Shown here piece after piece: positions 50,235 to 64,000 of a stretch of DNA of 64,000 bases; position 1 is the stretch's first letter; every line of letters begins with the position of its first letter. Under the pieces are notes generated by a model. That model saw only the letters and a program-made list of their open reading frames with translations, did no database searches and was not told the DNA's origin. The position numbers were made by a program, and so were the translations under genes. Source of the stretch: a virus; the IMG/VR virus record IMGVR_UViG_3300042691_009766, positions 6,391-70,390 of that record. One strand, written 5' to 3'.

Positions 50235-50240
50235 AAACTC

Positions 50241-50537
50241 CTATTCTGTCTCGCACAAATCGCAACCACAAGTTCCCTCAACCCAATCAGGGTCTGAGGG
50301 GCTTTCAGGGTAGCCTCTATGCTGGTCTATTGGCAAACATTCAGGATGATAAAAGCCACCCTCTTCATCACGAACATCACAATCCAGATAAATCTGCTTA
50401 TCACATTCATCACAAGCAAAACCTGAACACTCGGCACAGCCCCAGCCGTCCTCAACTGGCAAGCGGTTCACGAACCTACCGAAACCAAAAGCGGTGCTAT
50501 TACCGCAATAGTAGCAAGGGTCAATTACCTCACTCAT
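50241..50537 (-). CDS. Cys-rich acidic protein
   Basis: multiple CxxC. Confidence 0.65.
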   Translation of the reverse strand: MSEVIDPCYYCGNSTAFGFGRFVNRLPVEDGWGCAECSGFACDECDKQIYLDCDVRDEEGGFYHPECLPIDQHRGYPESPSDPDWVEGTCGCDLCETE

Positions 50538-50736
50538 CTTCGTCCTCCCAATAACTCAGGTCTTTATCATTGAGAATGGCAAATACATACTCTATCCTTT
50601 CACTATCCCGTAGGTTAGCGAGCAAACCCCACTGCTTATCAGTCAAGCGGTCTGGGTGAAACACAGCCAATGCCCCAGACCCATACGAGCCATCAGCATC
50701 TACATAAGCCATGTTGTGAAAAACTTTATCTTCCAT
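50530..50736 (-). CDS. acidic hypothetical protein
   Basis: GGAGAACTAATG junction. Confidence 0.65.
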   Translation of the reverse strand: MEDKVFHNMAYVDADGSYGSGALAVFHPDRLTDKQWGLLANLRDSERIEYVFAILNDKDLSYWEDEDE

Positions 50737-50900
50737 TAGTTCTCCTCTGTTGGTTCGTAAGTTGTTGAGCCGTCTAGATACTCTGCATTTTCAGGCTCGT
50801 GTCCATTTACACGAGCCATACGGAATACATATTGAGCATCTTCCAAACTGTTTGCTTCTACAAGCCACCTGTTAGTTTCGGTGATAATAAACTTTTCCAT
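50736..50900 (-). CDS. small acidic protein, VEAxS family
   Basis: WLVEANSLEDA; start at GGAGAACTAATG. Confidence 0.65.
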   Translation of the reverse strand: MEKFIITETNRWLVEANSLEDAQYVFRMARVNGHEPENAEYLDGSTTYEPTEEN

Positions 50901-51088
50901 TAGTTCTCCTTTACTTCTGTTGGGGTATCCCAATCGGTCTCGCCACTCTTCCAGAACTTTTCTGAGTTAGGTAGGTCATCTACATCTAACATTTCATCCA
51001 TGAGTTCTTTGGCATGTTCAAGGCTATCTGCCTCAAAGGTAATGATGTTCTTGGTGTATTCGTGTTCTACGAACTGATACTTTGGCAT
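50900..51088 (-). CDS. small acidic protein, VEAxS family
   Basis: TFEADSLEHA. Confidence 0.65.
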   Translation of the reverse strand: MPKYQFVEHEYTKNIITFEADSLEHAKELMDEMLDVDDLPNSEKFWKSGETDWDTPTEVKEN

Positions 51089-51258
51089 TAGTTCTCCTCT
51101 ACCTCTCCTATTTCAATCTCACCATCTATGAAGTCGTTGTCTTTACGAACATCATAGAACACTCCTGAGATTGCTTTATTGACCATTTCCCATGCTTCAT
51201 CAGCACTATCCGCTTCAACCTCGTAGTATGCCGAGATGTCTACATTGTATGTTGCCAT
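51088..51258 (-). CDS. small acidic protein, VEAxS family
   Basis: YEVEADSADEA; translated by hand; GGAGG RBS. Confidence 0.65.
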   Translation of the reverse strand: MATYNVDISAYYEVEADSADEAWEMVNKAISGVFYDVRKDNDFIDGEIEIGEVEEN

Positions 51259-51268
51259 GTGTTGCCTC

Positions 51269-51937
51269 CTATTTACTCTCTGTTATCTTGTTCAGCAAAC
51301 GCTGGAACTCTCTAATCCCTAGGGATACACTCCCTGATTGACTAATGATGTAATCCTGCTCGGTAGCACCATCATCGTAAGTTTGCCATTGACCATCAAC
51401 CCTGACGCTAACAAGGGCGGTTTCCGCAATCGCATTACCCAGTAGCACTACCAAGTTCTTTTTGATTGTTTCAGCAGTGTTATCCGCTTGCTCTCTTGCA
51501 ACGCCCAACTTGTTTTCCTGAATAAGTCTTCTGCGATTTGCTTCAGCATCACGCTTCTCCTGCTCAATACGATTAGCCTCAGCCTCAGCATCCAAACGAG
51601 CCTGTTCAACTACCCAAACACTCTCGTAATCATCAGCCTTGGCTATGAAGTCTCTTGCCCTGATTACCCGATAGTGATTAGTTTCACCACCTGTGGGGTT
51701 GGGGCGTTTTTCAAGAACCAAATACCCTACATCTTTAGTTCCGCCAAATACCCTCTGAAATCTACTAATGTCTGCACCAACCCCATAGCCAGTGTGGTAG
51801 AGATGAGTGTCGTATAGATGGACAAAGATAACTCGGCTTGGGCTAATGTCTTCCAAACGCTTCTCGGTGCTTCTCTTGCCCTGAGGCACAACAGCCCACC
51901 TAACATCTGGAGTTTTTAGAATGTCTTTACTTTGCAT
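51269..51937 (-). CDS. hypothetical protein with coiled-coil
   Basis: AAAGGA RBS directly after a 40-bp element. Confidence 0.75.
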   Translation of the reverse strand: MQSKDILKTPDVRWAVVPQGKRSTEKRLEDISPSRVIFVHLYDTHLYHTGYGVGADISRFQRVFGGTKDVGYLVLEKRPNPTGGETNHYRVIRARDFIAKADDYESVWVVEQARLDAEAEANRIEQEKRDAEANRRRLIQENKLGVAREQADNTAETIKKNLVVLLGNAIAETALVSVRVDGQWQTYDDGATEQDYIISQSGSVSLGIREFQRLLNKITESK

Positions 51938-52016
51938 GAATGTTCCTTTCGGTTAGTTGCTTCACTATTGGGTCAGCAGGTTATCTTATTGTTAGTTCCC
52001 AAAGTTTCTAGGTGTA

Positions 52017-52060
52017 TGAGGGAGGGTAGGTGCTGAGGAGGCATACCACTACCACCCTCA
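52017..52060 (-). other. hairpin with CUCCUCA loop (antisense to conserved RBS)
   Basis: UGAGGGUGGUAGUGGUAUGC-CUCCUCA-GCACCUACCCUCCCUCA directly after VWA stop. Confidence 0.6.
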
Positions 52061-52066
52061 CCACCC

Positions 52067-54013
52067 CTAGTAGGTTAGATGACGAGCAATCGCCATCTCC
52101 ACTAGAGAACGACCTAGATGAACTAAGTCGCTGGCATTACGAACATGGCATACCACTTCTGCACCATGCAAGTTCTGTTCTTTTAGGTCAATCTTGTAAG
52201 GTGTAAGCCATGCTAACGAGGTAAGAACGCCACCATCTCGCATGTTGCGGATACTCTCCTCACTCTTTTCTAGGGCATCAGGGTTCCACTCACCATCAGT
52301 TATGACGATTAGCAGTTTCACTGCACGATTGCTATTGGCAAATAAGCCTTGAGCATACTGCAACGCTTTAGTTGGGTTCGTGCCACCATGAGTTCCTATG
52401 TAAGTCATAGTGTCTTTAGCCCGTTCATCAGGGCTGTAAAGGGTCATTGCATTATCGCTGTATGCCACCACACTTGTTGTGGCGTTGATTACATCCAACG
52501 CTTTTTTGATTGCCCACATACTCTCGGAGGCATCTCTAATCATGCCACCCATAGAGCCAGATACATCCAGTAGGACAACCGCTTCAATGTCTGTGGCATC
52601 AGCCCTACCATTCTCGTAGCGGTCAAATGCTTCTTCAAAGTCGCAACCCTGTTCCCAGCGAGACGGGTTGATACGCCCAGTCTCTACTCGGTAGTTCCAA
52701 GCAGGGTCATACTGAGAACGCAACCTACGAAGTTCAGTTGCAAACGCCTCTGCACCATCAACCGCTGTTGGAGATACCTCAACTTCTGAGGCATACTTGT
52801 ATTTAGGCGGGTCAGGCAATCTCTCACCCTCAAGCAACACATCACCATTGTAGATGTCTATGTCTCTGGCGAGTTTATCGTCAAGGCGGTCAAGCACCTC
52901 GTCTAGTGCCTCTAGCAAAGTGTCTTCCAGTTCTTTCTGCAACTGCTCTAGTTCTTCGGTGTTCTTACCCGAACCGCTACTGCCTTCAGGAGTATCTTGC
53001 CCTGAGTTTGAGCCATCATTACCCTCGTCATCTGAACCTGAACCAGAACCATCTTTGTCCTCGTCATCTGAACCAGAACCAGAACCATCCCCGTCCTCGT
53101 CCTCGTCATCTGAACCAGAACCAGAACCATAACCATCACAGCCATCATTGGTCTCGTCATCCGAGCCAGAGCCATCCTCGTCCTCGCCATCCCAGTCATC
53201 ATCAGTATCTACATCATCATACGGGCTATCGTCTTCTTCAACATCTTCGGAAGCCTTGGTCTGCTTACCTCTAGGCAAGCAACCGCTGTTGATGTCTGTG
53301 CCATGCTCATCCTCAGGTCTGCTGTCGTGTCCATGAGGGTTTTCCATCTCCAAATCTTGGGTAAGCCCATGGTAGCGAAGCACCAAATCTTTAGCGGTGT
53401 CGTAGTTATCAGGGTTGCCCATGTCTAAGGCTCGGAACTGGTCAATGATGACTTCAAGTTCAGCCACTCGGTCAGGATAAACAAACATGTCTCTAGCAAG
53501 TTTGCGAACTTGCTTGTCCAGATACTTACGACCATGAACTAACGGGAACGCTGACTCGTAGTGGTGAGACGAGGCTAGAAGATACTGGTTCATGGTTGCA
53601 ATAAACCAGTCTCTAATGCTCGGATACAGGGCTATCAACTGGCTCTCTATACGCTGGTCTTCCAAAGCGTTCCATGCCCTAGACAACTTGTTCTCAATCA
53701 CCCAATCTCTAAACTCGTTGCCAACACGAGGGCTTAGGAGGATGTGGCTAATCTCATGCAGGGTCAAGCCCTTTAGCGAAGCCACACCAGCCTTGGTTGT
53801 GAGGTCAGCGACTAGGTTCTCCTGAAACCAAATGCGGTTGCTATCCGAGAACGCTGGTGCTGAACCTACCCTGCTCAGTTTTACGCTGATAGGTCGCAGG
53901 GTGAAACTGGACGAGAACGATTGGATTACTTGCACCATACGAAGCAAGCGTTCTCTGTTGCGGTTTGCTAATAACTGCCTGTTATTTTGGATGTCTAGGT
54001 ATTCATGTTGCAT
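52067..54013 (-). CDS. VWA-domain protein with HExxH motif and acidic linker (CobT-like)
   Basis: HEISH, NALED.RIE, MIDAS DVSGSM, GGT, ITDG; GSGSGSDDE repeats. Confidence 0.85.
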   Translation of the reverse strand: MQHEYLDIQNNRQLLANRNRERLLRMVQVIQSFSSSFTLRPISVKLSRVGSAPAFSDSNRIWFQENLVADLTTKAGVASLKGLTLHEISHILLSPRVGNEFRDWVIENKLSRAWNALEDQRIESQLIALYPSIRDWFIATMNQYLLASSHHYESAFPLVHGRKYLDKQVRKLARDMFVYPDRVAELEVIIDQFRALDMGNPDNYDTAKDLVLRYHGLTQDLEMENPHGHDSRPEDEHGTDINSGCLPRGKQTKASEDVEEDDSPYDDVDTDDDWDGEDEDGSGSDDETNDGCDGYGSGSGSDDEDEDGDGSGSGSDDEDKDGSGSGSDDEGNDGSNSGQDTPEGSSGSGKNTEELEQLQKELEDTLLEALDEVLDRLDDKLARDIDIYNGDVLLEGERLPDPPKYKYASEVEVSPTAVDGAEAFATELRRLRSQYDPAWNYRVETGRINPSRWEQGCDFEEAFDRYENGRADATDIEAVVLLDVSGSMGGMIRDASESMWAIKKALDVINATTSVVAYSDNAMTLYSPDERAKDTMTYIGTHGGTNPTKALQYAQGLFANSNRAVKLLIVITDGEWNPDALEKSEESIRNMRDGGVLTSLAWLTPYKIDLKEQNLHGAEVVCHVRNASDLVHLGRSLVEMAIARHLTY

Positions 54014-55386
54014 TAGTTGTTCTCCTCTAGGTTGATGTTTAGGTCTCGTGCAATGTTTTCCCGCTGAGTATCAAGGTGCATAGACACAGCCTCTCTCTCC
54101 TCTGGTGAGAAGTTAGCGAGAAAGCGGTTGATTGCAAACTGGAAGTTGTATGTCTTCGCTTGCTTGACGAAGTTCAGCAACATACGAAGACCAACTCTGG
54201 TCTTGTGCCTTGCTGGTTCACTCTTGGATAAGTAGCGGAGGGCGGTTGCAATCTCCAGCAACGCTGGACTTGGTATCAACTGCTTCTCAATCTCAGGGTC
54301 ATCATCAAACTCAATCTTCACATTGAAGCGGTCAATCAAGGCTGGGTCTTGCTGACGAGTGCCAACATACCTTGACCCGACATTCTGGTCAGCAATGAAG
54401 ATAGTGTTTGGGTGAACAGGGATGACCTCGTTCAGCGTTTCAATCTGCAACTGCTTCTCCTCTAAGATACCTAGGAAGAGAGTTGAGTTAGCAGGAAGCA
54501 TACGGCTAAACTCGTTGAGCAAGACGATGCCGCCATGCTTGATGATTGTGGCAAATCGTGAATAGTGCCAGTCCCAACCACCAGTGCCATTTGGCAATAA
54601 GCGACCCTCAGTTTCCGCCTTGGACAGCGAGCCATCCATTTCCAAACGAACATAAGGAAGCCCCAAGTGTGAAGCAAGGTTGATTGTTGCCTGAGTTTTA
54701 CCTACACCAGCCTCACCAGAGAGCAGGAAGTTATCTCCAGCCTGAATACCACGAGTGAACATGTCTATCTCGTCAATCCCGTCAATCTTACGCTGGATGT
54801 GGAAAGGCTTTTCAGGAACGCTGAGTTTTGCCCAATAGCGAGGTGCTTGACCAGTAGTAATCATCTCAGCCACAGGTTCGGAAGTTGTCCCAACACAAAC
54901 CTCTTCGGCTACTGGCGGTGCAGATACAGGGGTCTCCTGAGTAATCGCCACCGATACTGGTGAAACATAGGTGTTTGACTTAGCGTATCTCGCCAGATGT
55001 TCTGGCTTGTGGTCAATGGTGTTGAATAGTTCTTGTGCCATGGTGTCCCACCTCACATCAGTAGTGCTGGTCTGGTCTTGAACTGCACGAGCCAACTTCT
55101 GCAATAGCGTAGTTGGTCTGCCAATCATGATGTCCCGTTCATCACTAGCAGTGATGAATAATGATACGGGCTTGCCGAGCATGACTTCATCTTCGGCTTT
55201 GAGCCAAAGTTCAGCACGACCCGTTCTGGATACTGGCATCCAAGCCCCAGCCACACCACGCAACTTGGTATCATTACCAAGACTACGGGTGTAAATCAAA
55301 GGCTCTCTCCCATGAACATCAGGGATGAAAGCGGTTTGGCGAATACCATTTACCGCATGATTAGATTGCAAGATTGTTGCATACAT
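54013..55386 (-). CDS. MoxR/CbbQ-type AAA+ ATPase (CobS-like)
   Basis: GEAGVGKT, VLLNE, DPALIDRF; adjacent to VWA gene. Confidence 0.85.
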   Translation of the reverse strand: MYATILQSNHAVNGIRQTAFIPDVHGREPLIYTRSLGNDTKLRGVAGAWMPVSRTGRAELWLKAEDEVMLGKPVSLFITASDERDIMIGRPTTLLQKLARAVQDQTSTTDVRWDTMAQELFNTIDHKPEHLARYAKSNTYVSPVSVAITQETPVSAPPVAEEVCVGTTSEPVAEMITTGQAPRYWAKLSVPEKPFHIQRKIDGIDEIDMFTRGIQAGDNFLLSGEAGVGKTQATINLASHLGLPYVRLEMDGSLSKAETEGRLLPNGTGGWDWHYSRFATIIKHGGIVLLNEFSRMLPANSTLFLGILEEKQLQIETLNEVIPVHPNTIFIADQNVGSRYVGTRQQDPALIDRFNVKIEFDDDPEIEKQLIPSPALLEIATALRYLSKSEPARHKTRVGLRMLLNFVKQAKTYNFQFAINRFLANFSPEEREAVSMHLDTQRENIARDLNINLEENN

Positions 55387-55457
55387 GTTTTACCTCCTCA
55401 GGTTTTGTTGTTGCTTCACTATTGGGTCAGCAAGTTATTTGATTGTTAGTTCCCAAA

Positions 55458-55949
55458 CTATTCTGTCCAGATGTATTCATAACTGACGGGTGCTTCCCCT
55501 GTATCCTCCACCCAACCGAACTGCGAATACCATGCGTAGTTCTTACATAGCAACGCTAGTCGGTGTGATGAAATAATGCTCTCCAACAAATCTCCGTCAT
55601 ACATCCATGACGGGAGAGTTATTGGTTGCTCATCTCTTACGAGATTGAGTTTGAGTGCTTGCTCGTAAGTGCGTTCAGCCTTGTCGTAGATAGTTGATTT
55701 ATACCCACGAGCCTTCCACTCAAATACCATAGCCCCAATGTAATCCAGCAAGGCGTTCTCATGTCCTCGCCACATCTTTACGGCAGGGTGATTACGCCAG
55801 CCCTTAGGCTCTCGCTTGTTGCCCTCAGGGTCAAGAGCAAGGTTGGTCATCATGATTTGCCAACCCTCTAACGCTTGCTTGTTGAGGCGTTGATTATCCA
55901 GCACTGAGGCAACCTCAGTGAAATCTGCGTATGGCAGGAATGTTTGCAT
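55458..55949 (-). CDS. pyrimidine-dimer DNA glycosylase-like (DenV/MSMEG_6728 family)
   Basis: MQTFLPY..F...A..LD..RL.KQ..E, HPAV.MW.G, SHR..L. Confidence 0.8.
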   Translation of the reverse strand: MQTFLPYADFTEVASVLDNQRLNKQALEGWQIMMTNLALDPEGNKREPKGWRNHPAVKMWRGHENALLDYIGAMVFEWKARGYKSTIYDKAERTYEQALKLNLVRDEQPITLPSWMYDGDLLESIISSHRLALLCKNYAWYSQFGWVEDTGEAPVSYEYIWTE

Positions 55950-55998
55950 TAGTCCTCCTCAGGTCTATTCACTATTGGGTCAGCAAGTTATTTGATTG

Positions 55999-56241
55999 TT
56001 AGTTCCCAAAGTCTTCGGGTTCGTCCCATGTTTCTTCAGGGTATAACGACACGCCCTCAGCATTGGTGTTGCCCGTTTCTTCTGTCCAGAACTCAGGCAA
56101 GAAATCGGTAGTGTTATCCAACATCTCCCAATAATCACCTATGCCCTCGGCTACCATACGGATAGCCTCCACAGCACTCTCGGCTTCTACCTCTGTTTGA
56201 TACCAGATGGTCGCTTTCTGTTGCACCTTGTATGTTCCCAT
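55999..56241 (-). CDS. small acidic protein, VEAxS family
   Basis: TEVEAESAVEA; ends GN* inside repeat. Confidence 0.7.
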   Translation of the reverse strand: MGTYKVQQKATIWYQTEVEAESAVEAIRMVAEGIGDYWEMLDNTTDFLPEFWTEETGNTNAEGVSLYPEETWDEPEDFGN

Positions 56242-56489
56242 TAGTTCTCCTTTACGAACTTGGCAAAGCCAATCAGCATGTCGTAGTTGCTCTCAATCTG
56301 CTCACACAAGAAGTCTGCCCAATAGTTTTCCATGGCTTCCCAGACAATTATGTCCTCATCATCAACTTCCGTTCCAATGTCCTCCAAGCGTTCAATGACT
56401 TCTTCGTAAGTAAGTTCGCCCCACTCACTCAACACCAAGCCCATAGCCTTTTGCTTACACTCTTCAATGATTTCAGGTGATAGTTCCAT
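56241..56489 (-). CDS. very acidic hypothetical protein
   Basis: TAATG coupling. Confidence 0.7.
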   Translation of the reverse strand: MELSPEIIEECKQKAMGLVLSEWGELTYEEVIERLEDIGTEVDDEDIIVWEAMENYWADFLCEQIESNYDMLIGFAKFVKEN

Positions 56490-56593
56490 TAGTATCCTGC
56501 TTTCTCTAACATTGCTAGTAGTTTCTTCAATGTTTCCTCGTCAAGTGAAGCGATTGCTTCCTCGTTGATTGCTTCTTTACCGAACTCTTCCAT
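56489..56593 (-). CDS. 34-aa acidic peptide
   Basis: GGAGG RBS after repeat; MEEFGKEAINEEAIASLDEE... Confidence 0.6.
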   Translation of the reverse strand: MEEFGKEAINEEAIASLDEETLKKLLAMLEKAGY

Positions 56594-56658
56594 GTTGCCT
56601 CCTTGTTGTTGTTCTCACTATTGGGTCAGCAAGTTATTTGATTGTTAGTTCCCAAAGT

Positions 56659-56847
56659 TTATGTATCCCGTAGATACACTTGGGCAAATGCCTCTGCTTC
56701 TTCATGGCTATTACACTCCTGCCAGAAGTCATGGAGGTATTCCCAATCAGGTCTAGCGAGATTGGTGTAGCAAACCCAACCCATAGCCCCGTTCCACACG
56801 AGTTTCAAGTGCGGTTTATCTTCTCGTGTGAAGACAACCCACTCCAT
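56659..56847 (-). CDS. hypothetical protein
   Basis: TAATG coupling. Confidence 0.6.
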   Translation of the reverse strand: MEWVVFTREDKPHLKLVWNGAMGWVCYTNLARPDWEYLHDFWQECNSHEEAEAFAQVYLRDT

Positions 56848-57278
56848 TAGTTTTCCTCTCGGTCTATTTTGCTACCCCAGAAGTCAAAGACTTCACCCAA
56901 GGCTGTTGCTTGGTCAAAGATTTTGTTGATGTTGATAGAGATTGTTTCGCCCTTGCTGTTGTAAGCCACTGCGAAGCCAGCAAAGTAGCGTAGTTTCTCA
57001 CTACCTATCTCTTGGATAATCACTACGGAGTTCTCTTGGAGATGTCTGCTGAAGATACCAGCCCAATCTATTTCATCACCACCAAATACAGCGTCATCAC
57101 TGAAGTAATCGTTCCAAGGGAACGCCCCGTCATCACTTTGAACGAACAAGGCAACGAACTCAGGGTTATCGTCCTTGCTTACAACCTCTAGGTTGTATTT
57201 CTCTACCTCTTCTGTGAAAGCCTTTACATCTTTCACCTGAAAGTAGTTGGTTCTAGCACTAGCGTAATAGTTAGCCAT
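56847..57278 (-). CDS. conserved phage hypothetical protein
   Basis: MANYY..ARTNYF.VKD...G.EKLRY..G.A.A. Confidence 0.75.
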   Translation of the reverse strand: MANYYASARTNYFQVKDVKAFTEEVEKYNLEVVSKDDNPEFVALFVQSDDGAFPWNDYFSDDAVFGGDEIDWAGIFSRHLQENSVVIIQEIGSEKLRYFAGFAVAYNSKGETISININKIFDQATALGEVFDFWGSKIDREEN

Positions 57279-57519
57279 TGTTGTCCTCCTTGTTTAGTAT
57301 TGCGATTGCGTTTTGTAGTTTCTCTTGGGCTAATTCATAAGACGAAGCATGTTCGTAAATGTCTTCCCAAGTGCTTTCATCAACGAGCCAGATGTCTTCC
57401 CCGTTCCAAGAAACACTAGCCCGTTCATCATCAACCCAAGCACCAGCGACTTTCTCTGTCCCGTCATCTGCTACTTCTACCTCAACACACAGGGCGAAAT
57501 AAACCTGTTTAGTTGCCAT
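57271..57519 (-). CDS. acidic hypothetical protein
   Basis: GAGGA RBS. Confidence 0.65.
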   Translation of the reverse strand: MATKQVYFALCVEVEVADDGTEKVAGAWVDDERASVSWNGEDIWLVDESTWEDIYEHASSYELAQEKLQNAIAILNKEDNNG

Positions 57520-57761
57520 TAGTTATCCTCTTCCTCTTCGGTAAGTGTGTAGTCGTTGAACTTATCTACAACAAGTTCGCTGATTTCATCAGCAATCTCG
57601 CCATAGTATTCCTGTTTCTCTACGAACTCTGCCCAAGTTCCAACGCCAACAGAAGCGATAGCGTGGGGTTTTACATCATCAAACGAGAGTGTTTGCCATA
57701 GCAGTTCTTCGTCAGGTTCATAGTTCTCTTGTAAGAACTTGATTAGGTTATCTCTGGTCAT
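57519..57761 (-). CDS. very acidic hypothetical protein
   Basis: CCTGAGGAGG RBS after repeat. Confidence 0.7.
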   Translation of the reverse strand: MTRDNLIKFLQENYEPDEELLWQTLSFDDVKPHAIASVGVGTWAEFVEKQEYYGEIADEISELVVDKFNDYTLTEEEEDN

Positions 57762-57825
57762 TTAGTCCTCCTCAGGTCTAAGTGTTGTTGTGTCCTCACT
57801 ATTGGGTCATGAGGTTATTTGATTG

Positions 57826-57939
57826 TTAGTTCCCAAATCCTCGGTTGCTCTTGATACATCTTTGTTCGTGGCGTAGCAGTTGTAGCAGGTGTAGCCCTCT
57901 TCTATGAAGTTCGGCACAATGGCAGGTCGTATTTTCCAT
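57826..57939 (-). CDS. 37-aa peptide
   Basis: GGAGAAGTAATG start; ends GN* in repeat. Confidence 0.5.
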   Translation of the reverse strand: MENTTCHCAELHRRGLHLLQLLRHEQRCIKSNRGFGN

Positions 57940-58400
57940 TACTTCTCCTCCTCTTCTTCTTCTTCTTCGTGTGTTCTCTTCTTCTTCTTCTTCGTATGTT
58001 CTTCCAACCATGCTTGTCGCTGGCTCTCCTCAGCATTGTCCAGCCACTCCTGCTCTTCTTCTGTAAGCGTCCCAACACAAACAACACAAGTGCCTCGGCA
58101 CTCAGGTTCATAGGGGTCAGGCTTAGTCAGCACCCTAACCCTCTCAACATACATGCTGTCCAAGTCCTGCTCGTTGTGGCAGGACGGACATAGCAATCTG
58201 CCGTCAGTTGTAAGTGTGTTCTCGCCAAAGAAACGCCAGCAAGCACCACACTCCCAAGCGTAGATAAAGTTAGGTGCTTCACTTTCGTATGCCTCAAACT
58301 CATACAAGTCCTCGTCATGCTTCGGGCATACAGCAAAGTAGTCAGGTGATACATCATCAAACGAAACTTCTGTATTACAGCGATTACAATACCAAGCCAT
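57939..58400 (-). CDS. multi-CxxC Zn-finger protein with acidic tail
   Basis: CNRC, CPKH, CGAC, CPSC, C...CVVC. Confidence 0.7.
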   Translation of the reverse strand: MAWYCNRCNTEVSFDDVSPDYFAVCPKHDEDLYEFEAYESEAPNFIYAWECGACWRFFGENTLTTDGRLLCPSCHNEQDLDSMYVERVRVLTKPDPYEPECRGTCVVCVGTLTEEEQEWLDNAEESQRQAWLEEHTKKKKKRTHEEEEEEEEK

Positions 58401-58762
58401 TAGTTAGCCTCCTCTGCCATGAGTTTCATAGCCCCAGCGATAGCCTCTACAATGTCCCCGTAGATACCATACTCGTTGTCGTAGTCATCAGCCTTGGCAA
58501 CTACGAACCAAGGGTTCATGTGCCAATCTAACTCGTCATGCTTCTCAGCGTGAGCAACTTTATCGTCAGTATCTAAACCAACCTTGATGAAATCGCTATT
58601 GGTGTAAAGCCTCTCGCCCTTGTAATCAACTCGCATTTCGCCACAACGAATAACAACCCACTTCTCGTCATCACTAGACCAAACCCACCCGTCATCATAG
58701 AACACATCTAAGCGTTGGTCAGGGTTGATGTTGTATTTCGCAATAATCTCTTGCTCGTTCAT
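58400..58762 (-). CDS. acidic hypothetical protein
   Basis: GEMR...NPWF motif; coupled. Confidence 0.7.
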   Translation of the reverse strand: MNEQEIIAKYNINPDQRLDVFYDDGWVWSSDDEKWVVIRCGEMRVDYKGERLYTNSDFIKVGLDTDDKVAHAEKHDELDWHMNPWFVVAKADDYDNEYGIYGDIVEAIAGAMKLMAEEAN

Positions 58763-58947
58763 TAGTTAGCCTCACTCTCAAAGTGGTCAGGGTATTCTTC
58801 TCGCAGGTAATCAAGCAGTTCATCTTTGGTCGCACCATTGACTAGCAACTTGATAAAGCCCTCGTCTTCACGAAGAGCATAGTAAGAAATGTAGTTGGGG
58901 TAATCACTCCAACGGGATAATGCTTTGTCTAGTTGGTCTAGGGTCAT
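58762..58947 (-). CDS. acidic hypothetical protein
   Basis: CCTGAGGAGG RBS after repeat. Confidence 0.7.
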   Translation of the reverse strand: MTLDQLDKALSRWSDYPNYISYYALREDEGFIKLLVNGATKDELLDYLREEYPDHFESEAN

Positions 58948-59009
58948 GCTGTCTGCCTCCTCAGGTCAGTTTGGTTGCCTCACTATTGGGTCAGTGAGTT
59001 ATTTGATTG

Positions 59010-59171
59010 TTAGTTCCCAAGAGTTCCAGCGAATAGTGTGAAAGCCAAGGCAGACATACTAAACGACATGAACGGACTATTGCCATGTTGTATCGCCCCG
59101 ATACCTGAGGTGATACCTAGCACGAAGAACACGAGCAAGCCCCAACGAGCAAGCACTTTCATTTCGTTCAT
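59010..59171 (-). CDS. small two-TM membrane protein
   Basis: MNEMKVLARWGLLVFFVLGITSGIGAI...LFAGTLGN*; translated by hand. Confidence 0.6.
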   Translation of the reverse strand: MNEMKVLARWGLLVFFVLGITSGIGAIQHGNSPFMSFSMSALAFTLFAGTLGN

Positions 59172-59356
59172 AGCAACTCCCAACTGAAATCTAATCTTCT
59201 ACGGCTGAGGTCAATGCCCTCTTCATCTTTGATACGAGCAATAGCCAAGTCGTATAACTTGTCCTCGTCTAGTTCTTCATCACCCTCGTAGATGTAATCA
59301 ACGCTAATGATAAAGGTGGTGCTATCGCTAGACAGCGAAACGCTGTAAGTTTCCAT
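59168..59356 (-). CDS. acidic hypothetical protein
   Basis: coupled ORF. Confidence 0.65.
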   Translation of the reverse strand: METYSVSLSSDSTTFIISVDYIYEGDEELDEDKLYDLAIARIKDEEGIDLSRRRLDFSWELL

Positions 59357-59604
59357 TAGTTCTTCTCCAATCCGTCAGTAGCGTTGGTGTCGTGGTCGCA
59401 GTGTTCAGCACACTCTCCGCAATCGCCACACCTGCCCTCTCTTGAGGAGAGTTCATACAACTCATCACAGGTATCGCAGTTGCCGAAGTTCTCGCAATCA
59501 TGCTCGTTCCACTCAGCAACCTCGTAAGTGTTCTCAGGGTCAAAGGTTCTGCCACAGCCATCACACTCCACGAACTCAACTCCGTTGTCTTTCTTCATGC
59601 TCAT
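59356..59604 (-). CDS. Cys-rich acidic Zn-finger protein
   Basis: CDGC, H.C, CDTC, CGDCGEC..HC. Confidence 0.65.
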   Translation of the reverse strand: MSMKKDNGVEFVECDGCGRTFDPENTYEVAEWNEHDCENFGNCDTCDELYELSSREGRCGDCGECAEHCDHDTNATDGLEKN

Positions 59605-59729
59605 TAGCAATCTCCCTCGTTGATTAGTTGTTCTAGTTCCCAAAGTGCTTCATCAGCACTCATAGTTCCCATGTGATACATAGAGTAGATACTCTGTATC
59701 TTCTTGGCTTCTTCAGTTGTTAGTTCCAT
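59604..59729 (-). CDS. 41-aa peptide
   Basis: CCTGAGGAGGCAAC RBS; translated by hand. Confidence 0.55.
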   Translation of the reverse strand: MELTTEEAKKIQSIYSMYHMGTMSADEALWELEQLINEGDC

Positions 59730-59773
59730 GTTGCCTCCTCAGGCTTGTTGGTTGGTGTTGCCTCACTATTGGG

Positions 59774-59926
59774 TCAGCGAGTTATTTGATTGTTAGTTCC
59801 CAAGTCAATCTCTTCTTGCTTGGTTCGTAGCAAAGCAATAAGCCCGTCAATAATCCTAGACTTGTCGCTTGTGGCTATGAGTATCTTGGCTATCTCTTGG
59901 TCAAGGGGAGTAATAATCTTATCCAT
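59774..59926 (-). CDS. 50-aa peptide ending LGTNNQITR* in repeat
   Basis: GAGGACTAATG start; translated by hand. Confidence 0.55.
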   Translation of the reverse strand: MDKIITPLDQEIAKILIATSDKSRIIDGLIALLRTKQEEIDLGTNNQITR

Positions 59927-60180
59927 TAGTCCTCGCCCTCCTCGTCATCAAGACCAGCGAACATCATGTCCCAGCAAGTCCCACAATAGCCCGATAAGAA
60001 CTGCTCACGAATACCTAGGTCAGTATCAGGCAAGACCTCGCCAATCAACGCCCCTTGATTGTATTTCCATACCTGCTGTCCCGTAATCTCAATGGTCTTT
60101 ACATCACTACACATGGGACATGGGTAAGTGCTGAGTGTGTATCTGTCTTCGGCAATCTTGCCTACATGAGCAACTCTCAT
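59926..60180 (-). CDS. Zn-finger protein (CPMC...RE..LSG.C..CW)
   Basis: motif plus GGAGG RBS. Confidence 0.7.
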   Translation of the reverse strand: MRVAHVGKIAEDRYTLSTYPCPMCSDVKTIEITGQQVWKYNQGALIGEVLPDTDLGIREQFLSGYCGTCWDMMFAGLDDEEGED

Positions 60181-60386
60181 TAGTTAGCCTCCTGTATGTC
60201 GGTTGTTAGTTCCCAAAGTTCCTCTGCTATCTCCTGAATAACTAAACGCTTCTCCATAGCCCTAGTAGTCAGGTCATCACAGCAAGCATAGGACATAGCG
60301 TTTCGCATGAGCCTAGCCCTCTTCGGCTTTAGGTGCTTGTTTCGTGCTTTCTTTACTGCTGGTGTATCTTTGAGTGTTCTACTCAC
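60180..60386 (-). CDS. hypothetical protein
   Basis: AAGGAG RBS after repeat, GTG start. Confidence 0.65.
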   Translation of the reverse strand: MSRTLKDTPAVKKARNKHLKPKRARLMRNAMSYACCDDLTTRAMEKRLVIQEIAEELWELTTDIQEAN

Positions 60387-60472
60387 TTGCTCTCCTTGTT
60401 TGGTTGGTGTTGCCTCACTATTGGGTCAGTGAGTTATTTGATTGTTAGTTCCCAAATCTTCAGGCTAGTTAG

Positions 60473-60678
60473 GTGAGCAGTTTAGACACTTACTCAGGTG
60501 CTTAGATAGTTTAGCCACTCTTGCGATAATCTAAATGTGGTCGCATTGACTAAGGCAGGTCGCACCCTCCTTAGTTTGCTCATACCAACTCTGCCTCGGT
60601 TGGCTGAGGTTAGGACACGATTGCGAGTTCCTAACTAATCTTTAGTTGTGTGAGCAGTTTAGACACTTGCTCAGGTGT
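60473..60678 (-). ncRNA. candidate structured RNA (3 pseudoknot motifs + 3 hairpins)
   Basis: intergenic on - strand; covarying stems; complementary UCGCA/UGCGA loops. Confidence 0.6.
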
Positions 60679-60701
60679 TTCTACCAACCACCAGCAGAAA
60701 T

Positions 60702-61070
60702 CTACCCGTAAGTTATTTCCCCGAAGATTGCGTATTGGCATACCAAATCACCGAAGCAAGCGTCAGGGTCTTCCAAGTCCAATGGATAGTTCCCACAATG
60801 AGTTTGCCCAGCAGACAAGGCTAGTTGATAGCCCTTGGCTAGTTGGTCTAGCGTAATGGTGTGCCACTTCTCTTCGTAATCGTCCCAGAGCATAAAGTCC
60901 TGAGGGTTAGGCTCGTAATCAGGTTTAGTCCAAAGACTAATGCCCTTGCCGTCAGGCTTACGAACCTTGCTTGCCCAATAACCCATACCAGCACCATCAC
61001 TACCCCAGATTGCTTCCCAGAGTTCGTTGAGTGATACTTCCATGCTTATTGTTATCTTCTTGTCTTCCAT
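60702..61070 (-). CDS. conserved phage hypothetical protein
   Basis: G.GYWA...DA...D...QYAIFGEI.YG. Confidence 0.75.
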   Translation of the reverse strand: MEDKKITISMEVSLNELWEAIWGSDGAGMGYWASKVRKPDGKGISLWTKPDYEPNPQDFMLWDDYEEKWHTITLDQLAKGYQLALSAGQTHCGNYPLDLEDPDACFGDLVCQYAIFGEITYG

Positions 61071-61131
61071 GTGTTCTTCTTTCTGTTTGGTTGGTGTTGC
61101 CTCACTATTGGGTCAGCAAGTTATCTTATTG

Positions 61132-61281
61132 TTAGTTCCCAAGAGTTTCGGTCTTGCTTACAGCAAGTCGGTCTAGTGTGTCTAGTCGTGTTGCCTTAGG
61201 CAGAAGAGTAATCCTCAATAGGTCTATCATTGAGTAGTCCTCAGGTAGAACCCAAGTAATCATGTCCTCTGTGTATTCCAT
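61132..61281 (-). CDS. 49-aa peptide ending GN* in repeat
   Basis: AAGGAGG RBS between two repeats; translated by hand. Confidence 0.55.
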   Translation of the reverse strand: MEYTEDMITWVLPEDYSMIDLLRITLLPKATRLDTLDRLAVSKTETLGN

Positions 61282-61327
61282 GTTGCCTCCTTGTTGTGTT
61301 CTCACTATTGGGTCAGCGAGTTATCTT

Positions 61328-61490
61328 ATTGTTAGTTCCCAAATCTCGTATGTATGCCCAACACAAACAATCGCATTGTTAGTTCCCAAGCGTGAGGCAT
61401 TGTTAGTTCCCAAGACACAGGCTCGCAGGTATGCCAATACCCCCCACCCTTACGGGTGAGGGGTAGAGGTATGCGATTGTTAGTTCCCAG
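61328..61490. repeat. cluster of four ATTGTTAGTTCCCA half-sites with GC hairpin
   Basis: copies at 61328, 61375, 61399, 61476; hairpin TACCCCCCACCC-ttac-GGGTGAGGGGTA. Confidence 0.85.
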
Positions 61491-61686
61491 AAGTTTCGGG
61501 TGTTGCCTTGGTGATGTGTCCTGCCTCTATCAAAGCCTCGGCAGTTCTCCCGTAGAACCCTTGTAGTTGCCATGCCATACCTGTATCAACTAGGTATTGG
61601 AACATAGCCAGCAAGCGTTCCTCAGTAATCTCGCCACACTCAAAGTCCATGATGTCCATGACTAGATTGTCCTTGTTGTATTCCAT
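61480..61686 (-). CDS. conserved phage protein (Q.L.DTG.AW.LQG.YGRTA)
   Basis: motif; AAGGA RBS after repeat. Confidence 0.75.
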   Translation of the reverse strand: MEYNKDNLVMDIMDFECGEITEERLLAMFQYLVDTGMAWQLQGFYGRTAEALIEAGHITKATPETSGN

Positions 61687-61748
61687 GTTGTTTCCTTATC
61701 TGTTGGTTGGTTGTTGCCTCACTATTGGGTCATGAGGTTATTTGATTG

Positions 61749-62033
61749 TTAGTTCCCAATGTTCTTGCGTTCAGTTGGCAAGCCGTTCTTCTGGAAGAAG
61801 TATCCCCTCATGATTAGAGGCACATACTTATCGTCCAAAGCCCACTCATCATCAAGGCGAAATACTTGGTTGCCCTCTTTATCAGTAGTCCATGAGGCTA
61901 CTACCTCACCAAAGACTTTCACAATGTAATCGCCCTTGTGGTTCTTGTATCCCGTCATGCTACCCCACCTAAACTCCTCATAGGTGTTGATGAAGTATGG
62001 CACTTGTTCTTTAGCAATAGTTAGTCTTGCCAT
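61749..62033 (-). CDS. hypothetical protein
   Basis: CCTGAGGAGG RBS; ends GN* in repeat. Confidence 0.7.
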   Translation of the reverse strand: MARLTIAKEQVPYFINTYEEFRWGSMTGYKNHKGDYIVKVFGEVVASWTTDKEGNQVFRLDDEWALDDKYVPLIMRGYFFQKNGLPTERKNIGN

Positions 62034-62081
62034 GTTGCTTGCCTCCTCAGGCTTGTTGGTTGGTGTTGCCTCACTATTGGG

Positions 62082-62243
62082 TCAGCGAGTTATTTGATTG
62101 TTAGTTCCCAAGTCCTCTTCGCCTTGCTCGGCTGAGGCGTGGCACTCACACTCACACACCCAAGTCTTCTCGTAATAGGTGATTGACTTGTGGCAGGTGT
62201 CGTGGTGTCGGGTGATACAGAACCCAGATACATACTTGCTCAT
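62082..62243 (-). CDS. 53-aa Cys/His peptide ending LGTNNQITR* in repeat
   Basis: GFC...H..C...CECECH; GAGG RBS; translated by hand. Confidence 0.6.
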   Translation of the reverse strand: MSKYVSGFCITRHHDTCHKSITYYEKTWVCECECHASAEQGEEDLGTNNQITR

Positions 62244-62450
62244 GGTTGTTGCCTCTCGTGCTTGGTGGTGGAGGGAGGGGGTCGGGGGGAGGTTGCCCTC
62301 CCCCCTCTATGAAACTTAGTTTCTAAGTCCCATAGGTTCGGCATGTTGTTATTCAGCAGTATTACCTCAACGCCTCTTACTTGCTACTGCCTAGTATGTT
62401 TATCCCGTATCAAACATACAAACTTTATCTAGGTCATCTGCCTAGCAAGA

Positions 62451-62477
62451 GAGCAGTTTAGCCACTTGCTCAGGTGG
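62451..62477 (-). ncRNA. pseudoknot motif copy in 3' UTR
   Basis: CCAC-CUGAGCAA-GUGG-CUAAACU-GCUC, 12 nt after stop of 62490-62858. Confidence 0.6.
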
Positions 62478-62489
62478 TGTTGCCTAGCC

Positions 62490-62858
62490 TTAGGCTAGAA
62501 CCTCAGCCTCAGCCTCAGCCTTGGTGATTGCTACTGCCTTAGGCTTCGCCTTAGCCTTGCCCTTAGCCTTAGCCTTGGTTGCCTTAGCCTTAGCCTTGGC
62601 TCGTGCCTCAGCCTTAGCCTTTCTCTCACTCTTGAGAACGAGAGCCTTGGTGTCCCCTAGTTCAGCGAGCAGACCTCTAATGAAGTCAATGTCGTTGCTG
62701 TATGCTTCAGCGTTCTCTTCGCTGAAACTATCGCTTGCCTCGTCCTGAGCATACTTACGGAGAGTATCTCTCTGGAGAGCCAACTTTCGTAGTCCCTCAA
62801 TGATGTATGGGACGGCTTCTGTTGCTACTTTGGTGGTGCTTGCTGGCTTGTTTGCCAT
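62490..62858 (-). CDS. protein with histone-H1-like KA-repeat tail
   Basis: KAKAEARAKAKAKATKAKAKGKAKAKPK. Confidence 0.75.
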   Translation of the reverse strand: MANKPASTTKVATEAVPYIIEGLRKLALQRDTLRKYAQDEASDSFSEENAEAYSNDIDFIRGLLAELGDTKALVLKSERKAKAEARAKAKAKATKAKAKGKAKAKPKAVAITKAEAEAEVLA

Positions 62859-62935
62859 GATTGCCTCCTCAGGCTAGTTGTTTGGTTGTTTGGTGCAGTG
62901 TTGCTTCACTATTGGGTCAGGAAGTTATTTGATTG

Positions 62936-63238
62936 TTAGTTCCCAACCAACAGGTCTTTCCACTTGGTCGTGGTCTTGGCGTGGTCTAGGTTGATTGCCC
63001 ATACTACATCTCGGCTAGACAAGCCACGCTTTACATGGCTTAGGTGGTGTGCTGTGGTCATGGAATAAGTCCTAGTGCTTATCCAGATGATACCCTCAGG
63101 GGATACCTCGGCAATCTTGGTGTTGTATGAGTAGATTACATACGAGCCGTCAGCCCTGTTGTATCCGTAGAAGTTGCTTCCTGTGAAATCTCTTCTGGCG
63201 GAAATTAGTTCATGTGCTTTCCAATTTGCAGTTCTCAT
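62936..63238 (-). CDS. conserved phage hypothetical protein
   Basis: YVIYSYNT.IA...YS.TT..H; ends GN* in repeat. Confidence 0.75.
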   Translation of the reverse strand: MRTANWKAHELISARRDFTGSNFYGYNRADGSYVIYSYNTKIAEVSPEGIIWISTRTYSMTTAHHLSHVKRGLSSRDVVWAINLDHAKTTTKWKDLLVGN

Positions 63239-63251
63239 GCTAGTTGCCTCC

Positions 63252-63428
63252 TCAGGCTAGTTGTTTGGTTGGTTGCTGGACAGCGTTAGTTTCAGGGACA
63301 TCTTGCCAACTACACTCTTTACAAACAGCGTGAATTGTTGGCGAATTGCTAGTGGTTGAGTATCTATAAACATACTTAGTGAAGTCATACATAGAAACTG
63401 AGTTTAGGCATACTGAACAAGTAGTCAT
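63252..63428 (-). CDS. 58-aa Zn-finger peptide (CSVC...CKEC)
   Basis: AAGGA RBS after repeat; translated by hand. Confidence 0.55.
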   Translation of the reverse strand: MTTCSVCLNSVSMYDFTKYVYRYSTTSNSPTIHAVCKECSWQDVPETNAVQQPTKQLA

Positions 63429-63492
63429 TATTTATTTCCTTATCTGTTGGTTGGTTGGTGTTTCACTATTGGGTCAGGAGGTTATTTGGTTG

Positions 63493-63693
63493 TTAGTTCC
63501 CAAGCCAATCTTTCATTTGCTCTATCTCGTCCTCGGTCATTTCGCCTTTGGCTACCTTTAGAACTAGACTAAGACGGCTAATGTTTAGCCTAAGTTTCGC
63601 TACGGCTTCGGGCTTTATCTTTGAGGTGTTGTAAGAGTTTAGGATAAATCCTAAGAAGTTTGCTTGTTCTTCTGTTAGTTTCATGGTAATCAT
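63493..63693 (-). CDS. hypothetical protein
   Basis: CCTGAGGAGG RBS; ends GN* in repeat. Confidence 0.7.
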   Translation of the reverse strand: MITMKLTEEQANFLGFILNSYNTSKIKPEAVAKLRLNISRLSLVLKVAKGEMTEDEIEQMKDWLGN

Positions 63694-63753
63694 GTTGCCT
63701 CCTCAGGCTTCTCGGTTGGTGCTTCACTATTGGGTCAGGGGGTTATTTGGTTG

Positions 63754-63903
63754 TTAGTTCCCAAAGGTCTTCTTCGCCTCGGCTATGAGGTAGTTGTTTA
63801 TGGTTGTTTGTAAGTCAGCGGAAACTGCTATAAAGTCAGCGTTCAGCCAGCCCCACTCTTTAGATAGATAGAATAGTTCGCCTTTGTAAGTTATGTTTGG
63901 CAT
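63754..63903 (-). CDS. 49-aa peptide ending GN* in repeat
   Basis: AAGGAGG RBS between two repeats; translated by hand. Confidence 0.6.
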   Translation of the reverse strand: MPNITYKGELFYLSKEWGWLNADFIAVSADLQTTINNYLIAEAKKTFGN

Positions 63904-64000
63904 AGTGCCTCCTTGGTTGGTTGGTTGCCTCATTATTGGGTCATGAGGTTATTTGATTGTTAGTTCCCAAATCGGTTGGTGGTGGTTCGTGTCCCGATAG

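Follow-up and report, generated by a model that had tools for sequence, protein, structure and literature searches.

A bipartite 40-base element punctuates the gene cassettes of a myovirus and recurs at essentially one fast-evolving locus of its likely host genus, Rhodoluna

The stretch analysed here, hereafter the window, comprises 64,000 bases and corresponds to bases 6391-70390 of the linear IMG/VR record IMGVR_UViG_3300042691_009766, which has 70,390 bases and is estimated to be 75% complete. Its leftward arm, which runs from 64000 down to 47822 and consists mostly of small unannotated open reading frames (ORFs), harbors an array of a 40-base element. The original prediction, which was made from the sequence of the window, had listed 16 copies, and when the 40-base consensus was searched with up to three mismatches all of them were recovered at the same coordinates on the minus strand, 15 as exact matches and one (63931-63970) with a single mismatch. 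Chance expectation, estimated from 100 dinucleotide-preserving shuffles, was 0.00 matches, and a search of the whole record returned no copies beyond these 16, the other strand and a reversed-pattern control both giving zero. The feature is real and highly non-random. In addition, copies that match particular phage lineages are kept by the likely host, at what is essentially a single fast-evolving locus.

All copies are confined to the arm of small, mostly unannotated ORFs, while the rightward arm and the first 6.4 kb of the record contain none, and the orientation of the element is throughout that of the genes downstream. The gaps between copies, predicted to be 160-3414 base pairs (bp), agree with the coordinates obtained. 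Since the window ends where the contig ends, the array is cut by the contig and not by the choice of window. The copies are as follows, in the direction in which the arm runs; G001 is a related viral contig, L038 a host contig, and X2, X4 and X5 are sequencing runs, all described below.

63931-63970, minus strand: full copy 1, with one mismatch (AATAATG); heads a 49-amino-acid ORF (63754-63903) and lies 30 nucleotides (nt) from the contig end.
63725-63764, minus strand: full copy 2; heads a 66-amino-acid ORF.
63464-63503, minus strand: full copy 3; heads ORFs of 58 and 100 amino acids.
62907-62946, minus strand: full copy 4; heads a 122-amino-acid ORF with Lys/Ala repeats and a 53-amino-acid Cys-rich ORF.
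62072-62111, minus strand: full copy 5; the stop codon of the preceding ORF is the TGA at positions 28-30.
61720-61759, minus strand: full copy 6; heads a 68-amino-acid DUF7417 ORF.
61303-61342, minus strand: full copy 7, of the AATAAGATAAC subtype.
61103-61142, minus strand: full copy 8, of the AATAAGATAAC subtype; heads a 122-amino-acid ORF starting at 61070.
60416-60455, minus strand: full copy 9; the flanking gene families adjoin each other without an element in G001, and a contig of run X4 diverges from the window at this copy.
59764-59803, minus strand: full copy 10.
58981-59020, minus strand: full copy 11.
57797-57836, minus strand: full copy 12.
56616-56655, minus strand: full copy 13; contigs of X2 and X5 that match only here bear the flanks of L038.
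55970-56009, minus strand: full copy 14; heads the gene for a pyrimidine-dimer glycosylase.
55417-55456, minus strand: full copy 15; heads the AAA ATPase and VWA gene pair.
51963-52002, minus strand: full copy 16, the last of the array; heads an element-free distal operon of about 15 ORFs that extends to 47822.

The element is bipartite. Block 1 is TTGGGAACTAAYAA (positions 1-14, referred to as the 14-mer) and block 2 is TGACC-N6-TGAG (positions 28-42), with a spacing of 13 nt between them and weak conservation over about 7 nt on the 5' side. The pattern TGACC-N6-TGAR occurs 16 times on the sense strand of the window, each time within an element, and never on the opposite strand (shuffle mean 0.5). 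A 10-base core of block 1, GGGAACTAAC, occurs 20 times, all on the minus strand: 16 times in the full copies and four times in solo 14-mers, which consist of the first 14 bases without the 3' half and start on the minus strand at 61490, 61413, 61389 and 60216, the one at 61490 with C as its first base. They are distributed over two places.

61346-61490, minus strand: non-coding stretch with three solo 14-mers and a G+C-rich hairpin; homologous to the solo-bearing stretches of G001 and of a second related contig, G002.
60203-60216, minus strand: solo 14-mer within the 3' end of a 68-amino-acid ORF.

The glycosylase gene of G001 carries a solo 14-mer fused to its ATG, with the 3' part of the element, the leader and the ribosome-binding site (RBS) deleted, and to judge from this case solos can arise through deletion.

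It had been proposed that nearly every copy is followed by a leader, an RBS and one or more ORFs, and that many copies overlap the stop codon of the ORF before; both descriptions were borne out. A C/A-rich leader and a GGAGG-type RBS follow the element and the start codon lies 20-48 nt beyond it, an arrangement present in the ORF table for 15 of the 16 copies, with the remaining one (61103-61142) served by the ATG at 61070. The preceding ORF ends inside the element in 10 of 16 copies, with the TAA at positions 9-11 in eight and the TGA at positions 28-30 in two, and 1-64 nt short of it in a further four. Stop codons are present in all three frames (TAA 9-11, TAA 20-22 and TGA 28-30), although the frame that ends at positions 20-22 is never used except by one doubtful ORF of 38 amino acids. 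The stop frame of the 14-mer is used in eight window copies and in 11 of 14 copies of G001. Otherwise unrelated small proteins end in a common C-terminal ...(F/L)GN, for instance at the window copies 63764, 63503, 62946 and 61759 and also at copies of G001, because their last three codons and the stop lie in the 14-mer.

Searches for relatives of this region gave few matches. No similar phage was found for 51900-64000 among 50,697 GenBank phage records by megablast, the exact full-length element had no match in viral contigs, the AAA ATPase used as a lone query retrieved nothing among viral contigs, and a two-sequence alignment of this ATPase, searched against metagenome contigs, recovered only the twin of G001. 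A relaxed pattern (14-mer, N13, TGACC) matched five contigs, of which L012 and L022 were discarded as chance-like matches without the third block and without homology. The other three are related to the window at about 77% nucleotide identity: G001 (34,340 bases), G002 (13,819 bases) and G003 (6,572 bases), with 18, 15 and 7 copies of the 14-mer, respectively, each on one strand. G002 overlaps the end of G001 and runs on past the array: on the upstream side of the copy homologous to the window's last one it has only one more full copy and four solos, then five element-free ORFs, and then the start of the rightward arm, where the arms diverge. At the head of the leftward arm of G002 (L025, 5990-6130, minus strand) the first ORF starts 6 nt past the hexamer TAGATT. 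An ordinary promoter with leaderless initiation is conceivable here; it was noticed by eye and not returned by the consensus scan.

The full element of the relatives reads TTGGGAACTAAYAA-(CC/GG)TGTTAGTnnC-CTGACC-n-TAnnnT-G. It agrees with that of the window in the 14-mer, TGACC and their spacing and differs in the centre, which is ATCAAATAAC in the window, and the stop codon at positions 20-22 (TAA or TAG) is retained in both lineages despite the altered centre. The 14-mer is identical in nearly all of the 16 and 22 phage copies and in the solos. Together with the 14-mer, the centre of the relatives forms a 17-bp palindrome, ACTAACA-N3-TGTTAGT, whereas that of the window forms none. The hexamer at positions 34-39 is AATAGT in 15 of 16 window copies and AATAAT in the other. 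Among the relatives it varies (TAAGAT, TATAGT, TATGGT, TATGAT, TAATGT and TAGGGT, with TTAGAT, TGTAAT and TAAGAC as exceptions), T34 being present in 22 of 22 copies, A35 in 17 of 22 and T39 in about 19 of 22, with positions 36-38 free.

Differences were counted over 44 positions for each pair of copies. The mean was 4.29 within the genome of the window and 7.19 within G001-G003, compared with 13.57 between the two groups, and nine orthologous pairs, defined by a common downstream gene family, differed at 12.8 positions on average. Since paralogous copies are much more alike than orthologous ones, the element is homogenised within each genome and its copies evolve in concert, be it through gene conversion, amplification or joint selection by a lineage-specific factor.

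When one genome per prokaryotic species was searched with the bipartite pattern, four matches were obtained, three of them in freshwater actinobacterial assemblies (two of Rhodoluna sp. and one of Micrococcales). Rhodoluna is the likely host genus; WhiB genes, which are found in the phage, also point to an actinobacterial host. When GRGAACTAAY-N15-TGACC was searched with at most one mismatch it was found at 8 places in 5 assemblies, 7 of them at the same locus, and controls gave none. Among 81 sampled genomes of the genus, six have a match with at most two mismatches, six of the nine places being at this locus, while 0 of 150 other genomes sampled from the family has one. The exact 14-mer occurs once or twice per host assembly of 1.1-1.3 Mb. 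The locus was followed on these contigs:

Host locus, assemblies G005, G006, G007, G231 and G162: L036 (3478-6871), L034 (1-2356), L035 (1-3232), L038/L053, L040 and L041.

The host contigs are chromosomal; they carry nusG, rplK, rplA and a decarboxylase gene, the longest also ordinary metabolic genes, and the locus adjoins nusG-rplK-rplA. At the locus a full element lies in a divergent intergenic region, with two RelB-like ribbon-helix-helix genes on one side and, on the other, an ORF of 94-101 amino acids that shows a C...CxxC...H pattern and, after it, the gene of a TPR protein of about 490 amino acids. Homologs of the small ORF were detected in 11 of the 81 genomes of the genus, which makes the locus accessory, and 7 of the 11 loci examined have an element, some degenerate, at most 330 nt upstream of the small ORF. 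The locus evolves fast, with identities between assemblies of 46-69% for the small ORF and 26-32% for the TPR protein. Two host-only motifs, CGGGAATAA and ATGTCAGTGG, recur upstream of both of these genes. Neither protein was matched in the four phage records, by tblastn in GenBank phages or in PADLOC; NCBIfam and Pfam were uninformative beyond the TPR assignment, and a protein atlas gave generic leads only.

Between host loci and phages the element alone can be aligned, with 86-95% identity over 35-50 nt. In the host copies both blocks and their 13-nt spacing are conserved and the sequence of the spacer varies, a conservation that appears to be the footprint of a bipartite, protein-recognised site working in the uninfected or the infected cell. 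The variants follow the phage lineages. The spacer of L038 is identical to that of window copies (13 of 13), the nearest window copy differing at 5 of 44 positions, and the spacer of L034 agrees with the G001 type at 10 of 13 positions, this copy having at least 6 differences from that type over the 44 positions, while host copies differ from each other at 12-21 of 44 positions. The L038 and L034 versions are on contigs of one assembly and may represent two strains. Contigs of the runs X2 and X5 that match the window only at 56616-56655 have the flanks of L038 on both sides (30 of 30 bases each); thus this host allele is present in the same runs as the phage sequence.

One host locus has an extended arrangement. 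In G162 (L041 1501-1930, G162:C20) a full element, a solo 14-mer, a degenerate full element, a phage-like RBS (CCTGAGGAG) and a 73-amino-acid ORF form a mini-array upstream of the small ORF. The four phage records contain no homolog of the 73-amino-acid ORF. Another ORF at this place, a short one, ends in ...GFGN at the element, as phage ORFs do.

The phage itself is a myovirus. Its rightward arm encodes a tail sheath, a T4 gp19-type tube and baseplate proteins, as well as a DnaB-type helicase, a family-A DNA polymerase, a UvsX-like recombinase and a Cas4/RecE-like exonuclease. A queuine tRNA-ribosyltransferase-like enzyme, a ribonucleotide reductase, SpoVS and one WhiB protein are also encoded there. 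Besides its small, mostly unannotated ORFs the leftward arm encodes the AAA ATPase/VWA pair, the pyrimidine-dimer glycosylase, an 82-amino-acid XRE protein and a second WhiB protein. The regulators and the junction of the arms are located as follows.

48287-48535, minus strand: XRE-type helix-turn-helix protein, second-to-last gene of the leftward arm.
47822-48154, minus strand: WhiB-like protein, final gene of the leftward arm.
32562-32912, plus strand: WhiB-like protein, the other copy, in the rightward arm.
47781-47822, no strand assigned: hairpin with an 18-bp stem where the arms converge, likely a two-way terminator.

The XRE protein shares 52% identity with its ortholog in G001, where neighbours typically share 70-90%. 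Other strongly diverged syntenic genes are a 368-amino-acid protein (39043-40149, 52%), a 70-amino-acid ORF (41359-41571, 49%) and the first gene past the last element (51269-51937, minus strand), which encodes 222 amino acids without a family match and shares 46% identity with its G001 ortholog. Domain scans covered 98 and 11 ORFs of the phage, from a record that represents about 75% of its genome, and 22 ORFs of G002, and returned neither a sigma factor nor an RNA polymerase domain. The same set held no integrase-type domain, so that the recombinase which the original prediction suggested looking for beyond the window was not encountered. Pfam and PHROG scans likewise gave neither an integrase nor an immunity-type repressor in the available genome parts, the 82-amino-acid XRE protein being the only candidate to appear, and in these parts the phage looks lytic. 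No tRNA genes are present in the window.

Several further features were noted in the array. A second repeat, CACCTGAGCAAGTGTCTAAACTGCTC, has three copies on the minus strand (60475-60500, 60652-60677 and 62451-62476; 0 expected), which sit in the two longest non-coding gaps of the array, and the 250-nt gap 60456-60705 has a folding z of -2.1, so that a small RNA or another control site is possible there. In the 245-nt gap upstream of the 53-amino-acid Cys-rich ORF lies a G/C-tract hairpin (GGGGGGAGGGCAACCTCCCCCC...; 62255-62335, minus strand), and a comparable one stands next to the solos at 61430-61470 and also in G002 and G003. The 122-amino-acid ORF at 62490-62858 (minus strand) contains a long Lys-Ala (AAGGCT) repeat; contig depth over it exceeded that of its neighbours by hundreds to thousands of times in all four runs, most likely owing to low-complexity cross-matching from other organisms.

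The element had been predicted to be a phage early promoter or operator. This is still the best reading, although it is not proven and a canonical sigma-70 promoter is not what was found. We consider it probable, with moderate confidence, that each copy is a transcription-control module, likeliest a non-canonical promoter with a built-in recognition site that is read by the host polymerase. Two invariant blocks at a fixed spacing, the short set distance to the RBS and the strict co-orientation with the genes argue for a DNA site read by a protein, as do the lack of a conserved RNA structure and the position of a copy in a divergent host promoter region. Each module would drive one cassette of small early or accessory genes of the leftward arm through the host RNA polymerase, the likely reader given that no sigma factor or polymerase domain occurs among the scanned phage ORFs. 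The hexamer at positions 34-39, which is TANNNT-like, would be the probable -10 box. TANNNT -10 boxes are typical of actinobacterial sigma-A promoters, and the variation of the hexamer among the relatives follows this pattern. From such a box we infer a transcription start near position 45-47, and block 1 would then lie at about -45 to -32, as a partner of sigma region 4 or as the site of an activator or repressor. Possible binding partners are the WhiB proteins of the phage, its XRE protein or a host factor. Since the same module occurs at essentially one locus of the genus Rhodoluna, it may be a host-compatible regulatory element that was multiplied by the phage, in which gene conversion, co-selection or both would maintain the likeness of the copies.

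Several observations weigh against this assignment. A canonical sigma-70 scan gave 9 promoter-like sites where 22 +/- 4.1 were expected, and none is built from the conserved blocks; the sole site that overlaps an element (55469-55442) takes its first hexamer from a copy-specific flank. The hexamer of the window lacks T at -12. An A at -11 or another key base is missing in 5 of 22 copies of the relatives and in several host copies (TCTAGT, TTTGGT, AAAGGT and AATGGC), which makes the -10 assignment shaky. An alternative register, with GGGAAC as the -35 and TGAC as the -10 of an extracytoplasmic function (ECF)-type promoter, is possible. The solo 14-mers are perfectly conserved without block 2, which suits an operator or roadblock better than a promoter, and the host-only motifs CGGGAATAA and ATGTCAGTGG between element and gene could be the real host promoter. 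Two other promoter models were discarded: for a long-spacer promoter of the MerR type the palindrome of the relatives, centred at about position 15.5, overlaps the would-be -35 and not the spacer, and for TGACC as the -35 of a downstream -10 the leader has no TANNNT at 16-18 nt.

Other explanations of the element were weighed. The 14-mer might be the operator or roadblock of a phage or host repressor, comparable to a stoperator, with the promoter elsewhere or secondary; such a repressor might be, for example, the XRE protein (48287-48535) or a ribbon-helix-helix protein of the host. Conservation is highest in the 14-mer, which is identical in nearly all phage copies and solos; it is asymmetric with one orientation relative to transcription, and it overlaps stop codons. 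Moreover, the solos lie in short non-coding stretches beside hairpins, the 17-bp palindrome of the relatives is of the type usual for helix-turn-helix dimers, and the divergence of the XRE protein parallels the changed centre of the element. However, the palindrome is missing from the window version and most host versions, the sites occur in one arm and not genome-wide, the full copies keep block 2 and a set gene distance that a pure roadblock would not need, and the available parts encode no integrase or immunity-type repressor. We regard an operator as improbable. We give still less weight to a promoter of a dedicated polymerase or sigma factor, either ECF-type or of a phage single-subunit polymerase. 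Such a factor would fit two invariant blocks with fixed spacing and, with its very small regulon, a single host locus; the hosts have about three sigma-70-family genes, one of ECF size (an open frame of 164-172 amino acids). GGGAAC (positions 3-8) resembles the -35 signature of ECF promoters, in which GGAAC is followed by the -10 after about 16-17 nt and the distance from AAC to GAC is about 17 nt, and TGAC-N2-TATAG resembles the core of SP6/T7 promoters. Yet the next invariant block here, TGACC, begins at position 28, which puts AAC and GAC 20 nt apart, about 3 nt beyond the ECF value; neither the 70 kb of phage, about 75% of its genome, nor 9.4 kb of G002 yielded a sigma or RNA polymerase domain, and a chromosomal host copy speaks against a phage-polymerase promoter.

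The least probable explanation, and a very improbable one, is an element acting at the RNA level in a long polycistronic transcript, where it would stop translation in three frames, mark a processing site or insulate one cistron from the next. It is favoured by the three-frame stops retained in both lineages, by the frequency with which the element supplies the stop of the upstream ORF (8 of 16 copies in the window) and by a 7-bp hairpin (positions 23-42) that most window copies can form, with -3.3 to -7.9 kcal/mol in 12 of 15 distinct copies. The mean for the window was -4.83 kcal/mol compared with -4.26 when the left arms were permuted among copies, and 11 of 500 permutations attained the observed mean. 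Conservation of the hairpin is lacking in the relatives, though, where 109 of 500 permutations reached the observed energy, nor is it visible in the hosts; it has no U-tract, no Rfam family matched the window or the host loci, and the host copies lie in a divergent promoter region and not between cistrons. With no structure conserved across lineages and no Rfam match, a site at the DNA level is favoured. A joint for recombination, in the manner of the T4-type promoter early stem-loop (PeSL) elements, is the alternative that we rate highest, but as unlikely nonetheless. The repeats would then be portable homology for the excision, duplication, swapping and exchange of cassettes, which would fit a cassette replacement between identical element flanks, a family moved or duplicated among cassettes, the UvsX-like recombinase and Cas4/RecE-like exonuclease of the phage, the extra phage-like cassette bounded by elements in G162, and the element as the only part common to host and phage. 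The concerted evolution of the copies would also require transfer from copy to copy, or joint selection. What counts against a joint is the gene order of the arrays: breaks show no enrichment at elements, the interior of cassettes is reshuffled too, and the operon that has no elements is equally plastic; this comparison comprises four genomes of two lineages at about 77% identity, and recent events are beyond its resolution.

For this comparison, sense-strand ORFs with an RBS in the four arrays were clustered by BLASTP. Three doubtful ORFs of 29-38 amino acids within non-coding stretches were then dropped, and junctions between adjacent ORFs of the arm were scored unless neither family was present in a relative. 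With the window as reference, 9 of 13 junctions with an element were broken and 20 of 27 without one (Fisher p = 1.0); with G001 as reference the numbers were 9 of 12 and 17 of 24. Breakpoints are therefore no commoner at element junctions, and the suggestion that the element is a dedicated recombination joint gained no specific support. Many gene families are common to the arrays in differing order: one family occurs in different cassettes depending on the genome, one G001 family is duplicated into a cassette of its own, one slot is filled by three unrelated cassettes in the window, G002 and G003 with identical element flanks, and ORFs are also reshuffled within cassettes. Because the element-free distal operon (47822-51937) gains and loses genes at the same rate as the array, breakpoints are not tied to the element at this level of identity. 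The contigs of the four DNA runs on 47800-64000 are about 200-1000 nt long and break at repeats, hence they are uninformative on repeat-to-repeat deletions and on mini-circles between elements; the joints listed in them (51099/57571, 55544/55757 and 55805/55921) are none of them at elements. Among the runs listed for 55400-64000 none was an RNA run. The element does exchange sequence somehow, as seen from its concerted evolution, the variants shared between host and phage, in whichever direction they may have moved, and the G162 cassette.

In the literature searched, supplements being outside the search, no publication on this element or on Rhodoluna phages was found, and no description of the element was found in work on whiB, intergenic motifs or promoters of freshwater actinophages. 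Three analogues had been named in the original prediction, of which the PeSL is the closest in layout and setting and the other two, start-associated sequences (SAS) and integron cassette arrays, fail on defining features. According to the parts of the sources at hand, PeSLs of T4-type phages are repeated composite motifs in a plastic region, made up of an upstream stop, a promoter-like core, a Shine-Dalgarno sequence and the next start (Arbiol et al., 2010, PMC2839356; Comeau et al., 2014, PMC4122927). The element shares this layout, its concentration among small ORFans in a plastic region, a short stem-loop that can overlap the core, and cassettes that vary between close relatives. It differs in that the sigma-70 -35/-10 consensus core of PeSLs is absent, the stem-loop is weak, unconserved between lineages and without a U-tract, and breakpoints are not enriched, though some cassette replacements are bounded by elements. 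Furthermore, the host here is actinobacterial, and its chromosome has a matching copy, for which the parts of PMC2839356 and PMC4122927 at hand describe no PeSL counterpart.

Stoperators of Cluster A mycobacteriophages, as the available part of PMC9283540 describes them, are short, asymmetric, multicopy sites in intergenic regions or at promoters whose orientation is tied to transcription. The 14-mer is likewise asymmetric, with all 20 core occurrences on the sense strand, but the element is a longer bipartite 40-bp unit at a set distance from the gene and is restricted to one arm, whereas stoperators are spread over both arms and the whole genome; nor was a Cluster A-type repressor or integrase seen in this phage, which looks lytic in the parts available. 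SAS and extended SAS (ESAS) of Cluster K mycobacteriophages, following the portion of PMC3203893 at hand, are repeats in one orientation that contain the RBS and lie 3-7 bp from the start codon. Both they and the element are restricted to the non-structural half of actinophages, upstream of unrelated genes and in one orientation, with a consensus that shifts by lineage, but between the element and the start codon there are 20-48 nt, in which the RBS lies as a separate feature. As for integrons, no integron-type tyrosine recombinase was found among the scanned ORFs, and the element has no lineage-conserved inverted repeat and places a promoter-like core and leader 5' of each gene, while attC sites fold from imperfect inverted repeats and stand at the 3' end of cassettes that lack a promoter. 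In activator- or appropriator-dependent phage promoters, such as the T4 middle promoters with a MotA box, and in the early promoters of the Streptomyces phage phiC31, a -10-like box is paired with a conserved box further upstream that takes the place of the -35. The element resembles them in this combination and in its many copies serving one temporal gene class, and differs in that no MotA/AsiA-like proteins were identified here and a chromosomal host copy exists. Compared with a canonical sigma-70 or sigma-A promoter, only the -10-like TANNNT/AATAGT hexamer is present and no pair of a TTGACA-like -35 and a TATAAT-like -10 box 16-18 bp apart.

Beyond the promoter reading, we put forward as a tentative and rather doubtful idea that the element is a regulatory currency shared by a phage lineage and one hypervariable host locus, made up of the RelB-like ribbon-helix-helix genes, the element, a Zn-ribbon-like small ORF and the fast-evolving TPR protein. 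One possibility is that the host has placed an infection-triggered sentinel or defence operon under the promoter type of the phage early genes; another is that the phage multiplies a strain-specific host promoter or operator, by which a host regulator is exploited or titrated. On both views the 13-nt spacers of phage lineages and host strains vary together, each allele with its counterpart, and this pattern would suggest an arms race or else gene conversion recurring in the course of infection.

Arrays of small early genes of unknown function are the most plastic and least understood part of phage genomes, and freshwater Actinobacteria such as Rhodoluna are abundant while the biology of their phages is almost unknown. 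The element provides a testable handle on how the timing and organisation of early expression are achieved without a canonical promoter, and it allowed a host to be assigned through a shared regulatory element instead of CRISPR spacers or tRNAs. The negative result counts as well, as the cassette arrays here are punctuated by repeats without an excess of gene-order breakpoints at them. Taken together, phage and host offer a natural case of a phage promoter family and a single host locus with lineage-matched variants, and if the host copy is an infection sentinel or a hijacked switch, this would be a new form of mutual reading of transcription signals between host and phage.

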